Of a stretch of 64,000 bases of DNA, positions 48,949 to 53,905 are shown one piece after another. The stretch comes from Candidatus Latescibacterota bacterium (GTDB lineage: Bacteria; Latescibacterota; UBA2968; GCA-2709665), in contig CBDCOX010000002.1 of the NCBI GenBank assembly GCA_965219995.1, positions 4,384,001 through 4,448,000 of the forward strand. The letters run 5' to 3'. Under the pieces are notes generated by a model. It had not been told where the DNA came from. It ran no database searches and saw only the letters and a program-made list of their open reading frames with translations. How positions within the stretch are numbered: the stretch's first letter is position 1; every line of letters begins with the position of its first letter. The position numbers and the translations under genes are program-made.

Positions 48949-49587
48949 CTATCCAAGCGGGCCGCCGCCGAAGAGGTCTTCTCCTTCTTCGGCGGTTTCT
49001 TCTTTGTTGGAGATGCCCCAGATCAGTCCGTGAGGATCCAGTTCGTTCAGAGGGGGGCTGTCGTAGTCCGGCTGGAGTTCGCTTCCGCAGATGGGACAGC
49101 AGGCATACGACGGATGATACAGGACGCCGTTGTTGCAGGCCTTGCAGGATTTCACCATCGTATCCAGCTTGTCGCCGCAGCGTACGCAGTGCTGAAAGTA
49201 GCCGTCGTAGGGCGTGCTCTCCCCGCACCGGGAGCAGGTCACCACGTCGTGCATGCCCAGTTTGTCGGCCGGCGGCTGCTCGAGCGAGATCGCCTGCCGA
49301 TCCGGCACGGAGACGTATTCGGCCTTGAACGTCTGAAATTTTTCGCGGATCTGGCTGGTCTGTACGCCCAGGTATTTTTCCGAAATCGTGATCGTGAAGA
49401 CCAGGTCGGGCGAAATGCCCAGGAAGTGGATGAGGTCTCTGGTATTCCAGTCCCGCTGTTCGACGATCGTGGCCTTGTGGGTTTCGCACAGGCTGAGGAA
49501 GTCCTGTATTTTTTTTCGGTTCTCCCGCCGCCGGCTGTTGTCTTCCCGTTCAAACTCGTACAGGGTGCCGAAGTCGATGCGGATCAT
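48949..49587 (-). CDS. Hypothetical protein with C-terminal double zinc ribbon
   Basis: CSRC, CVRC, CKAC, CPIC; ATGA overlap with uvrA stop. Confidence 0.75.
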   Translation of the reverse strand: MIRIDFGTLYEFEREDNSRRRENRKKIQDFLSLCETHKATIVEQRDWNTRDLIHFLGISPDLVFTITISEKYLGVQTSQIREKFQTFKAEYVSVPDRQAISLEQPPADKLGMHDVVTCSRCGESTPYDGYFQHCVRCGDKLDTMVKSCKACNNGVLYHPSYACCPICGSELQPDYDSPPLNELDPHGLIWGISNKEETAEEGEDLFGGGPLG

Positions 49588-52355
49588 GGTTCGATCACCT
49601 TATTGAGAAAGCGGCCGGTGTGGGAGGCCGGCGCGGCGGCAACGCGTTCCGGGGGCCCCTCCGCGACGACCCGACCGCCGGAATCTCCGCCGCCGGGACC
49701 GAGATCGACAATCCAGTCCGCCCGTTTCACAACGTCCAGGTTGTGTTCGATCACGATGACGGTGTTGCCCTTGTCCACCAGCCGGTCCAGAACCGCGATG
49801 AGCGTCCGGATGTCCTCGAAGTGCAGTCCGGTCGTCGGCTCGTCCAGAATATACATGGTTTTTCCGGTTGCCACACGGGAAAGTTCGGCGGCCAGTTTGA
49901 TGCGCTGCGCTTCGCCTCCGGAGAGGGCCCTCGCCGGCTGGCCCAGCCGGATATAGCCCAGGCCGACGTCCGAGAGGGTTTTCAGTTTCCGCCGTGCGCC
50001 GGGTATATCCCGAAAGAACGTGAGCGCCTTCTCGGCGGTCATTTTCAGGACGTCCGCGATCGAACAGCCCTTGTACCGGATTTCCAGGGTCTCCCTGTTG
50101 TAACGGCTTCCCCCGCAGGCATCGCAGGTCACATAGACATCGGGGAGGAAGTCCATTGCAATCCGTTGCTGGCCGTCGCCCTGGCAGGGCTCGCAACGTC
50201 CGCCCTTCAGATTGAAGCTGAATCGACCTGGCGTATATCCGCGAACCCTGGATTCGGGAAGTTGCGCGAAGAGCTCTCGAATGTCCGTAAAGAGGTCGGT
50301 GTAGGTGGCAGGGTTTGATCGGGGCGTCCGACCGATTGGCGCCTGGTCGATCGGGATGATCTTGTCGATCTGAGACAGTCCCTCGATGGCGTCGTGTCCA
50401 AGCGGTACGGACGCGGCGTTGTGCAGTCTGTTCGCCAGCGCAGGATAGAGCGTCCCGTTGATCAGGGTGCTCTTTCCGGACCCGGACACACCGGTAACGC
50501 AGACAAGGACTCCCAGCGGAATCGTGACGTCAACGCCCTTGAGATTGTGTCCTCGCGCTCCCTTCAATACGATCCGGCCGGTGGGTTGTCTATTGTCGGG
50601 GGGCCGGGGGATGGATTTCCGCCCGGAAAGGTACGCGCCCGTGAGGCATTCCCGGGCGGCCATGATCTCCTCAGCGCTACCCTGTGCGATCAGTTCGCCG
50701 CCCAACTCGCCCGCTCCGGGCCCGAGGTCGATCAGATGGTCGGCGGCCATCATCGTCTCCCTGTCGTGTTCCACCACCAGAACGGTATTGCCGAGGTCGC
50801 GGAGCGTTTCCAGAGTATGGATGAGCTTGCGGTTGTCCCCGGGGTGCAAGCCGACACTGGGTTCGTCAAGGACGTAGAGCACTCCCGAAAGGCGCGTGCC
50901 GATCTGCGTGGCCATGCGAATCCGCTGCGTCTCGCCGCCGGAGAGGGAGGCCACGCTGCGTTCCAGCGTGAGATAACCCACACCCACGTCCCTCAGGAAG
51001 ACGAGCCGGTTGCGGATTTCATCCAGAATCGTGTCGACGACCTCCCGGGGTCCCAGCCTCCCCCTCAGGCGTTCCAAGAAACCGATGGCCCGATCGATAC
51101 CCATCGCCGAAACCTGCCCGATGTTGCAGCCGTCAATGGTGACCGCCAGGGCCTCCTTTCGCAACCTCGCGCCGGAACAGTCCGAACAGACAACGGTATG
51201 GACGTACGGTTCAGGGCCGGACCCGGCTTCATCCGACGCGGCATCCGCAACCCGCCGGTTGAGGGACGGGATCACGCCGTCGAATCCGAGGGATTCGTCG
51301 CCCCACAAGATGGCCTCCCTCGCTTCGGTCGAAAGGGAACCGAATGGCGCGGCGACGTCGAAACCGTACCGGTCCGCGAGGCGCCTGAGCAGATCGAGCT
51401 TCGCGCGGCCCCTGGGGACGCCCCATGGCGCGATGGCGCCCTCGGCAATGGAGCGGCCCGCGTCCGGAACGACGCCGTCAGGATCTACATCCGTCCTCTC
51501 GCCCAGGCCGTTGCAGGCGGGACAGGCGCCGTGCGGACTGTTGAACGAGAACAGACGGGGCGTCGGTTCTTCAAGCGTGACGTCGCAGTTTCTGCATATC
51601 AACTGCGTGGAATAGCTCTGCTCACGGCCTTCGAGCACGTCCAGGACGACGATACCGCCGGACAGGGCCAGCGCGGTTTCGAGCGAGTCGGCCAGCCGGC
51701 GTTCGATTCCCGGGCGTACGACAAGGCGGTCGATAACGGCGTCGACGGTGTGCGGTTCCGTCGGATCCAGGCGAATTTCTTCTTCCAGGGCCCGATCCCG
51801 GCCGTCGATCCGAACGCGCACGTATCCATCGCGCCGGAGGCGTTCCAGTTCCCGGTCCAGACGACCTTTCCGGTTTCGTATCCATGGCGCCAGAATTCGA
51901 AGGCGGGTTCCCGCGGGCATCGCAAGCACCTCGTCGACGATTTCGCCGACGGTCTGGCAGGCGATCGGGTTACCGCAGTTCGGGCAATGCGGCAGGCCGG
52001 CCCGTGCGAAGAGGACCCTGAGATGGTCGTGGATTTCCGTGAGGGTGCCAACCGTCGACCTGGAAGTTCCCGCGGTCCGACGCTGTTGAATCGCCACGGC
52101 GGGGGAGAGGCCGTCAATGCTGTCGACGTCGGGTCTCTCCATCACCTCCAGGAAACGACGCGCGTGGGTGGACATCGCCTCCACGTACCTGCGCTGTCCT
52201 TCAGCATAGATGGTGTCGAAGGCCAGCGAGGATTTTCCCGATCCGGACGGCCCCGTGATGACCACAAACCGGTTTCTGGGGATGTCGAGATCGAGGCCCC
52301 GGAGGTTGTGCTGGCGGGCGCCGCGTATTCGGATGGCGTCGTTTGCAGGTGGCAT
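49584..52355 (-). CDS. uvrA: Excinuclease ABC subunit A
   Basis: GARQHNL, GPSGSGKSSLAFDT, EGQRRYVE, zinc fingers, second ATPase GVSGSGKS, LSGGEAQR, LDEPTTGLH. Confidence 0.95.
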   Translation of the reverse strand: MPPANDAIRIRGARQHNLRGLDLDIPRNRFVVITGPSGSGKSSLAFDTIYAEGQRRYVEAMSTHARRFLEVMERPDVDSIDGLSPAVAIQQRRTAGTSRSTVGTLTEIHDHLRVLFARAGLPHCPNCGNPIACQTVGEIVDEVLAMPAGTRLRILAPWIRNRKGRLDRELERLRRDGYVRVRIDGRDRALEEEIRLDPTEPHTVDAVIDRLVVRPGIERRLADSLETALALSGGIVVLDVLEGREQSYSTQLICRNCDVTLEEPTPRLFSFNSPHGACPACNGLGERTDVDPDGVVPDAGRSIAEGAIAPWGVPRGRAKLDLLRRLADRYGFDVAAPFGSLSTEAREAILWGDESLGFDGVIPSLNRRVADAASDEAGSGPEPYVHTVVCSDCSGARLRKEALAVTIDGCNIGQVSAMGIDRAIGFLERLRGRLGPREVVDTILDEIRNRLVFLRDVGVGYLTLERSVASLSGGETQRIRMATQIGTRLSGVLYVLDEPSVGLHPGDNRKLIHTLETLRDLGNTVLVVEHDRETMMAADHLIDLGPGAGELGGELIAQGSAEEIMAARECLTGAYLSGRKSIPRPPDNRQPTGRIVLKGARGHNLKGVDVTIPLGVLVCVTGVSGSGKSTLINGTLYPALANRLHNAASVPLGHDAIEGLSQIDKIIPIDQAPIGRTPRSNPATYTDLFTDIRELFAQLPESRVRGYTPGRFSFNLKGGRCEPCQGDGQQRIAMDFLPDVYVTCDACGGSRYNRETLEIRYKGCSIADVLKMTAEKALTFFRDIPGARRKLKTLSDVGLGYIRLGQPARALSGGEAQRIKLAAELSRVATGKTMYILDEPTTGLHFEDIRTLIAVLDRLVDKGNTVIVIEHNLDVVKRADWIVDLGPGGGDSGGRVVAEGPPERVAAAPASHTGRFLNKVIEP

Positions 52356-52372
52356 GCGGGACCGGCGAGGCG

Positions 52373-52399
52373 AAACCCCGATCGGGCGACCGGGGCTTT
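52373..52399 (-). terminator. Terminator-like hairpin directly after the tRNA-like gene
   Basis: Minus strand AAGCCCCGGTC-GCCC-GATCGGGGTTT; two G.U pairs form only on this strand; short U-tract. Confidence 0.45.
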
Positions 52400-52402
52400 G
52401 GA

Positions 52403-52469
52403 TGGTGCGGCAGGGAGGACTCGAACCGCCAGCCGTCCGGTTCGAAGCCGGATGCTGAACCACTGCCGC
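52403..52469 (-). tRNA. tRNA-Arg(UCG)-like gene lacking the D-loop (67 nt; pseudo-tRNA or non-canonical RNA)
   Basis: GCGGCAG-TGGTTCAGCA-TCCGG-CTTCGAA-CCGGA-CGGCT-GGCGG-TTCGAGT-CCTCC-CTGCCGC-A-CCA. Confidence 0.8.
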
Positions 52470-52483
52470 GAAGGCGTTGGACA

Positions 52484-52511
52484 AATATACCTTCCGCCGG
52501 TGCCGTTGCAA
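52484..52511 (-). promoter_or_regulatory. Sigma70-like promoter upstream of tRNA-like gene and uvrA
   Basis: Minus strand TTGCAA-16 nt-TATATT, ending 14 nt before tRNA position 1. Confidence 0.6.
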
Positions 52512-52615
52512 GCCCAAAAATCGCCACTTGACAATGGCGGACGAAATGGGAAAATTAAGGACTTGCCACAGCTGCGGTGAAATCCGAAAGCGGGCGTTGG
52601 TTCAGGAGGAAATCT

Positions 52616-53905
52616 GTGAACAACCGTTCGGCGGCGTTATTCGAAGCGGCGCAGCGGGTGATTCCGGGCGGCGTGAACAGCCCGGCGCGGGCGTTCGGCC
52701 CGGTGGGGGGCCGGCCGCTGTTCATCACGCGAGGAAGCGGGTCCAGGGTTTTCGATGCGGACGGGCGGGCGTATATCGACTACGTCTGTTCGTGGGGGCC
52801 GCTGGTTCTGGGCCATGCGCCGCCAGTCGTGGTCGAGGCGCTGAAACGGACCTGCGAGCAGGGTACGAGTTTCGGGGCGCCCACTGAAACAGAAGTCGAA
52901 ATGGCAGGGCTGGTCATCGAACTCGTGCCGGGTGTGGAAATGGTGCGGATGGTGAATTCGGGCACCGAGGCCACGATGTCGGCCGTGCGCCTGGCCAGGG
53001 GGTTTACGGGCCGCGAAAAGGTGATCAAGTTCGAGGGATGCTGGCACGGGCATGCCGACAGCTTTCTGATTCAGGCGGGGTCGTCGGCGCTCACCACGGG
53101 CGTACCCAGCAGCCCCGGCGTGACCGCGGGCACGGCGGCGGGTACCCTCACCGCACCCTACAACGACTTTGAGGCCGTTAAGCGGATCGTGGCGGAGAAC
53201 CCGGACGAGATCGCGGCGGTCATCGTGGAGCCGGTGGCCGGCAATATGGGCGTGATTCCGCCCGCGGACGGATTCCTGGAAGGATTGCGGGAACTCACCG
53301 CGGATTCGGGGATTGTGCTCATATTCGACGAAGTGATCACCGGATTCAGGGTTCATCCGGGAGGCGCCCAGGCCTTATACGGGGTCACGCCCGATCTGAC
53401 CACGCTCGGCAAGATTATCGGAGGCGGGCTTCCGGTGGGCGCATTCGGCGGCAGGCGGGAGATCATGTCGCATATTTCGCCACTCGGAAAAGGGGTATCG
53501 CAGGCCGGGACCCTTTCCGGAAATCCCCTTGCGATGACAGCGGGTTACGAGACGCTCATGCAGCTCCGGGAACCCGGCGCGTATGAATCGCTGGAGGGCA
53601 AAGCAGCCGCCCTGGAGGCCGGCTTCCGGGAAAACCTGAGGTCGCTCGGATTGCCGTTTCGCCTGAACCGGGTCGGGTCCATGATGACCATGTTCTTCAC
53701 GGACCGTCCCGTGACGCGATACGAGGCCGCCGTCGCGTGCGACCAGGAGGCTTTCGCGCGTTACTTCCGGCTGATGCTGGAACAGGGCGTCTATCTGGCG
53801 CCCTCGCAGTTCGAAGCGACCTTTGTCTCGCTGGCGCACACCGAAGCGGATATCGAGCGAACGATTGAAGCGCAGCATACGGCATTGAAGTCATGCGCAG
53901 CCTGA
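52616..53905 (+). CDS. hemL: Glutamate-1-semialdehyde 2,1-aminomutase
   Basis: [46 protein letters not shown]; AGGAGG RBS before GTG. Confidence 0.95.

Follow-up and report, generated by a model that had tools for sequence, protein, structure and literature searches.

The tRNA-Arg(UCG)-like sequence that precedes uvrA in this 64,000-nt stretch of DNA (the window, taken at its full length) is probably a non-decoding pseudogene that has been kept as part of the uvrA transcription unit. The arrangement typical of the wider order is an intact tRNA-Arg(UCG) directly upstream of uvrA, with its own promoter in front and a hairpin behind. Within the genus of the window's genome, a 10-nt deletion has taken the D-loop together with the D-stem's 3' strand, putatively through the insertion and imprecise loss of a miniature inverted-repeat transposable element (MITE), since the left edge of the deletion coincides with the TCA next to such an element in one relative. 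In the scenario we favor, loss of the tRNA would have been tolerated, since tRNA-Arg(ICG) can read CGA. Thereafter, selection has continued to act on the promoter, the CCA region, and the hairpin downstream, and the tRNA body has drifted. If uvrA is transcribed from the tRNA promoter through a weak hairpin, as we propose, then this read-through is why the relic survives at the front of the uvrA transcript, where it would persist as the first 70 nt of the leader and not as a tRNA.

The relic lies on the minus strand (52403..52469) and comprises 64 nt plus an encoded CCA; it was recognized by its Rfam tRNA score, by counts of paired stem positions, and by orthology to intact genes. Its acceptor stem is fully paired (7/7; 52469-52463 with 52413-52407), as is the anticodon stem (5/5), which carries the loop CTTCGAA with the anticodon TCG (UCG, Arg) at 52445-52443. 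A variable region of 5 nt follows, then a T arm with the loop TTCGAGT and a stem in which four of five positions pair and one is a C:T mismatch, and finally A73 (52406) and the CCA (52405-52403). The D-arm of ~20 nt is replaced by a 10-nt connector, TGGTTCAGCA (52462-52453); the stem and the loop with G18, G19, and A20 are absent, leaving 10 nt compared to 20 in the intact orthologues. A preliminary description of the locus, made from the sequence alone, had listed these stems and loops, the connector, A73, and CCA, and all of them were found, on the minus strand. The Rfam tRNA model (RF00005) covers 52406-52469(-) at full length (model positions 1-71) with 44.8 bits (E = 2.6e-06 for the whole window), above the gathering score of 29, and its alignment leaves 1 nt for a D loop that has 9 in the model. 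This is the lowest score among the 47 Rfam tRNA matches of the genome. ARAGORN, named beforehand as a check, made no call at the relic in either the window or the whole genome. In the predicted fold of the window genome's copy, the anticodon region pairs with the T arm and the three-stem form does not appear, and the fold is barely more stable than those of shuffled sequences (z-score, only -1.96). The locus should not be annotated as tRNA-Arg(UCG), despite passing the Rfam cut-off.

That the missing D-arm might be an assembly or sequencing artifact is a reading we regard as having next to no probability. A separately assembled contig of 22,396 nt from run X1, which is probably the source sample, covers positions 51500-53500 at a depth of 62 with 0 differences and 0 gaps. 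A contig from run X5, which carries a different organism label, spans 52369-52567 with 3 differences and 0 gaps, so that the sequence of a second organism is of equal length there. The D-arm deletion also recurs in 11 other assemblies of the genus, and nothing in favor of an artifact was found in these comparisons. The concern raised in the preliminary description that the deletion could be an assembly error was thus answered by an independent assembly at a depth of 62.

Comparison with relatives places the lesion within a single genus. The gene order hemL, tRNA, uvrA occurs in both families of the order, and outside the genus ARAGORN called a tRNA-Arg(tcg) of 74 to 77 nt at 25 of 25 loci, namely, in 18 of the 19 genomes that make up the second family and in each of the 7 genomes that represent other genera of the same family; the D-arm is intact in every one. 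A comparison of the same locus in relatives had been proposed in the preliminary description. Genome G036, of the second family and 82% complete, had no match at the locus. Within the genus, the locus is present in all 15 genomes, in three states: 12 copies, including that of the window's genome, have lost the D-arm, two are intact (G012 and G013, in both of which ARAGORN calls tRNA-Arg(tcg)), and one (G008) is interrupted by a MITE. The same ~10 nt are absent from all 12 deleted copies, and only one of these, in G001, is accepted by ARAGORN, as a 68-nt tRNA-Arg. The label "recent pseudogene" given earlier thus holds for "pseudogene" and needs qualification for "recent," since the deletion is common to 12 of 15 species and is not private to a strain. 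A scan of metagenome contigs for further alleles, with a 20-nt query from the conserved promoter, returned only one locus (L112), which was rejected as a chance match because its context is unrelated and it contains no match to a tRNA. The tRNA of the second family lacks an encoded CCA.

The history of the deletion is not one simple loss, because on the uvrA tree the deleted copy of G003 is sister to the intact copy of G012 with support of 100/100, and the D-arm states require at least two changes. The derived bases shared among deleted copies are AT-to-GC changes, a favored direction here (17 distinct changes from 24 AT sites, compared to 19 from 43 GC sites). With the 15 genomes compared, recombination, repeated deletion at the MITE target, and a single old deletion after which the lineages decayed separately are all possible.

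A mobile element offers a plausible origin for the common breakpoint. In G008, a MITE of 163 nt (L051:2166-2328) sits in the D loop of the tRNA and folds as a single long hairpin. It belongs to a family of 161 to 188 nt whose inverted ends are flanked by a target duplication of 3 nt (TNA); of 14 full-length copies examined, 6 have a perfect duplication. Matches to the family number 13 to 43 per genome in the five genomes searched, with 15 in the window's genome (among them G000:C2:1038931-1039091 and 424249-424410) and none at the relic locus of that genome. The G008 element directly follows a TCA, and the same TCA borders the deletion on its left in the other genomes; the 8 bases that come next resemble the left end of the MITE at 7 of 8 positions in G010 and at 6 of 8 in G007. 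Judging from the common breakpoint and these two 8-mers, the deletion may have arisen by insertion of a MITE and its subsequent imprecise loss.

Loss of the tRNA is unlikely to have left CGA unread. The tRNA-Arg set of the window's genome comprises ACG, CCG, UCU, and CCU, with no other tRNA-Arg UCG found in that genome. tRNA-Arg(ICG) is the ACG tRNA modified by TadA, and under established wobble rules I34 reads CGA. A TadA match (161 bits; cut-off, 150) is present together with the ACG tRNA, in keeping with the earlier suggestion that CGA can be read by tRNA-Arg(ICG), and loss of the UCG tRNA would be tolerated for that reason. tRNA-Arg(ACG) was found in 40 of the 41 genomes searched, including genomes with an intact UCG tRNA, and the uvrA genes of the deleted genomes contain 6 to 12 CGA codons per 860 codons. 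G001 gave no tRNA-Arg(ACG) match, and the 1.6-kb flank shared by G010 is missing there as well. The idea that the G001 relic decodes in place of the ACG tRNA was rejected, and the absence is read as an assembly gap (95% complete; 20 contigs).

The flanks of the relic have fared differently from its body. A promoter-like site on the minus strand (52484..52511), found by a consensus scan, consists of a -35 box TTGCAA (52511-52506), a 16-nt spacer, and a -10 box TATATT (52489-52484); the scan returned 2 sites compared to 0.1 expected in shuffled sequence. We counted parsimony changes per site on the uvrA tree across the 12 deleted genomes, in which fourfold sites of uvrA have 1.53 changes per site. 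The -10 box has 0.00 (0 changes at 7 sites, where the fourfold rate predicts 10.7). Between the two hexamers, the spacer varies freely, at 1.69, and the 5' leader (52470..52483, minus strand) is neutral-like at 2.08 (27 changes in the 13 sites counted, 52482-52470). Since the -10 box is unchanged in genomes in which the tRNA is dead, the promoter is under strong selection. No other promoter-like site was found by the consensus scan on the minus strand between hemL and uvrA, where promoters of other types are possible. With a constrained promoter and no second promoter-like site ahead of uvrA, the proposal that the locus is kept as a transcription unit in front of that gene gains support.

On the other side of the relic, a hairpin (52376..52395, minus strand) with an 8-bp G+C-rich stem, a 4-nt loop, and AAAG/TTTC flanks forms in the predicted fold and evolves at 0.45 changes per site (9 changes at 20 sites; 30.5 expected). 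The two flanking elements reported earlier, a promoter-like sequence before the tRNA-like sequence and a hairpin after it, thus correspond to TTGCAA-16-TATATT and to 52395..52376. The terminator scan did not list the hairpin because only TTT follows, and we read it, from its predicted structure, as a weak terminator or a leader hairpin that separates the relic from uvrA. Hairpins, some with long T runs, occupy the same place in genomes outside the genus. An alternative hairpin, in which the 3' arm would pair with a repeated copy of the 5' arm closer to the ATG, was dropped, as inspection by eye showed its pairing to be broken in G009, G006, and G002. The uvrA gene (49584..52355, minus strand) matches the NCBIfam UvrA equivalog NF001503 with 1333 bits (cut-off, 1147), and its ATG at 52355, 20 nt past the hairpin stem, is aligned in 15 of 15 genomes of the genus. 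No Shine-Dalgarno-like run was found before this ATG (52355-52375).

The divergent neighbor hemL (52616..53905, plus strand; NCBIfam TIGR00713, 617 bits; cut-off, 527) has a promoter-like site of its own by consensus scan (TTGACA-16-GAAAAT; 52528..52555, plus strand). An AGGAGG (52604-52609) lies 7 nt before its GTG start. The two divergent promoters, of the tRNA and of hemL, have between them an 18-nt palindrome with 7-bp arms (52522-52539) that overlaps the -35 box of hemL. This possible operator hardly varies among the 15 genomes of the genus.

Among five relatives inspected outside the genus, three (G017, G015, and G028) have the tRNA, hairpin, and ATG with no obvious room for a promoter; in the other two (G020 and G021), the spacer is longer and contains a TTGACA-like site. 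In G028 (L018), a strong terminator-like hairpin with a long T run follows the tRNA ~14 nt before the uvrA ATG, a layout which suggests that the packing of tRNA, hairpin, and uvrA is old and even tighter in the second family. In a close relative, two contigs assembled from RNA libraries extend from within uvrA across the hairpin to the relic (52243-52441 and 52310-52441); these are metatranscriptome contigs at a depth of 3 to 4, with possible DNA carry-over, and contigs cannot prove a single transcript. The RNA runs were available as contigs only, from which starts, ends, strand, and level cannot be read, and the lack of cover over 52505-52571 in the contigs of runs X19 and X20 is uninformative.

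If the relic were a working D-armless tRNA-Arg(UCG) that decodes CGA, as in some mitochondria, its body should be conserved as that of other tRNAs is, and we consider this very improbable. The copy in the window's genome does have perfect acceptor and anticodon stems, UCG, A73, and CCA, its Rfam score lies above the cut-off, and ARAGORN accepts the G001 copy. However, the D loop is gone together with A20, which is a major identity element for ArgRS, the predicted fold favors pairing of the anticodon region with the T arm, and the function is redundant with ICG. Across the 12 deleted copies, the anticodon stem is fully paired in 7 and the T stem in 8, and all stems are intact in only three (G003, G001, and G006). 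UCG is kept in 10 copies; it is changed to ACG in G010 and to UUG in G009. Each deleted copy has 3 to 11 substitutions compared to the intact G013 allele, and copies differ from one another at up to 14 of 67 positions (21%), whereas the control tRNA-Arg(ACG) is 99 to 100% identical in 13 of 14 relatives of the genus. Between close pairs of genomes, the relic has diverged as much as the fourfold sites of uvrA: G000 (the window's genome) and G010 differ at 13 of 67 positions, with a fourfold divergence of 0.15, and G005 and G002 at 12 of 66, with one of 0.13. The intact pair G012 and G013 differs at 1 of 77 at a divergence of 0.27. The preliminary description had proposed that a shared deletion with compensatory stem changes would support function. 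The deletion is indeed shared, by 12 of 15 genomes of the genus; covariation in the stems is absent. In the alignment, 90.7% of cells are paired, compared to 90.4% with shuffled 3' partners, and 214 of 500 shuffles reached the observed pairing. Since pairing is no better than in shuffles, it is inherited and not maintained.

It is more conceivable, and in our judgment still unlikely, that the relic has been retained as a tRNA-like processing module, in which a minihelix of acceptor stem and T arm with its CCA is cut by RNase P and/or the 3' tRNA-processing enzyme. Cutting the long transcript would define or stabilize the 5' end of a hairpin-led uvrA mRNA, and the D and anticodon parts would be dispensable and free to drift. 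For substrate recognition, the acceptor/T-arm helix and CCA are the main requirements of bacterial RNase P. The substitution rates are consistent with such a role: the acceptor stem (0.57 changes per site), T loop (0.43), and T stem (0.90) are slower than the anticodon stem (1.20) and the connector, the fastest-changing part at 2.10 (21 changes at 10 sites). Taken together, the acceptor/T-arm half with CCA has 23 changes at 35 sites compared to 53.4 expected at the fourfold rate (P = 2e-06), or 0.66 per site, 43% of the fourfold rate, and the D/anticodon half has 42 changes at 32 sites (1.31 per site) compared to 48.9 expected. The contrast between the halves (binomial P = 0.009) loses significance when the connector, which is hard to align, is excluded (0.66 compared to 0.95; P = 0.22). 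Neither CCA nor the three bases after it vary among the 15 genomes of the genus, and 9 of the 12 deleted copies have a fully paired acceptor stem; on the other hand, this stem has 3 mismatches in G004 and one each in G014 and G011, the T loop, unchanged in 9 copies, is altered in three, and the lack of covariation weighs against this role too. A slow top half is also explicable by deletions younger than the tree or by recombination. The earlier idea of a repurposed RNA acting as decoy, processing signal, or regulator is therefore kept alive in its processing-signal form by the slow acceptor/T-arm half and CCA, and its decoy form has no support. A fuller version, in which this "half tRNA" is still cut and releases a hairpin-capped uvrA mRNA from a strong tRNA promoter, is a little more doubtful again. 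If true, it would explain why the top half, CCA, and hairpin are conserved while the rest drifts, and it would be a bacterial counterpart of processing signals of the mascRNA type.

The same data bear on the reading of a non-decoding pseudogene within the uvrA unit, which we continue to prefer. Relaxed constraint after the lesion is apparent only in part from these rates, since the acceptor/T-arm half with CCA is not neutral. Possible reasons are a processing signal that still imposes constraint, short recombination tracts, repeated deletion at the MITE target, or deletions more recent than the tree. Some distant copies are nearly identical: the relics of G003 and G006 differ at 3 of 67 positions despite a fourfold divergence of 0.41, which needs constraint, late or repeated deletion, or recombination. 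The sisterhood of G003 and G012 also counts against this reading, as does the dependence of co-transcription on low-depth metatranscriptome contigs from a relative.

Like other bacterial tRNA pseudogenes and remnants, the relic derives from a working tRNA, has lost an essential part in the presence of a redundant isoacceptor, and has drifted in sequence. It differs from them in its internal D-arm deletion, where remnants are usually 3' fragments at integration sites, in retaining a promoter, a full acceptor stem, CCA, and a downstream hairpin, and in a lesion common to 12 of 15 species of a genus. D-armless tRNAs are known from mitochondria (e.g., tRNA-Ser(AGY) of animals and the tRNAs of nematodes), in which a connector of ~10 nt likewise stands in place of the D-arm between acceptor and anticodon stems. 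The mitochondrial tRNAs are functional and conserved, and their partner proteins have adapted to them, whereas the relic decays without covariation and with changed anticodons in a bacterium with a full set of ordinary tRNAs. The conserved connector, stems, and anticodon of the mitochondrial type are not seen here, as the connector changes fastest and the anticodon is changed in 2 of 12 copies. In the titles and abstract openings that we searched, nothing was found on D-armless bacterial tRNAs or on tRNA-uvrA units, and all matches for D-armless tRNAs concerned mitogenomes. Under the processing alternative, the closest parallel is mascRNA/MEN-beta (RF01684), a tRNA-like fold without a normal D-arm that serves as a cutting signal for RNases P and Z. 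That family is eukaryotic, the processing of the relic is only proposed, and the relic is not a member (16.4 bits; gathering score, 42.5).

For a pseudogene in a transcription unit, an instructive comparison is the mixed tRNA-protein operon thrU-tyrU-glyT-thrT-tufB of E. coli. In both cases, a tRNA promoter stands upstream of a protein gene, with no separate promoter between them in the operon and none apparent by consensus scan at the uvrA locus, and the tRNA would be cut out of the transcript. The uvrA locus differs in that the tRNA is dead in the genus, a hairpin lies between, and co-transcription is inferred. As for insertion of MITEs into tRNA genes, G008 provides a direct likeness, with its tRNA interrupted at the D loop by a 163-nt element; the window's genome has no MITE there, and the link between MITE and deletion is drawn from breakpoints.

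The locus illustrates the death of a redundant tRNA gene in a free-living bacterium by a hit to its D-arm, possibly dealt by a small mobile element. Its persistence across the genus would follow from its promoter and 3' flank belonging to the expression unit of an essential repair gene, and the order of tRNA promoter, hairpin, and uvrA across a bacterial order would make a testable case of read-through from a tRNA unit supplying a repair gene. A practical point for annotation is that a locus can pass the Rfam cut-off and still not be countable as tRNA-Arg(UCG). Elsewhere in the window's genome, three calls made by ARAGORN are absent from the 47 Rfam tRNA matches: a 79-nt Leu(cag) at G000:C2:298817-298895, a call of undetermined type ("???") at 603983-604068, and a 76-nt Ser(cga) at 3411283-3411358, which may be further tRNA relics or false calls.
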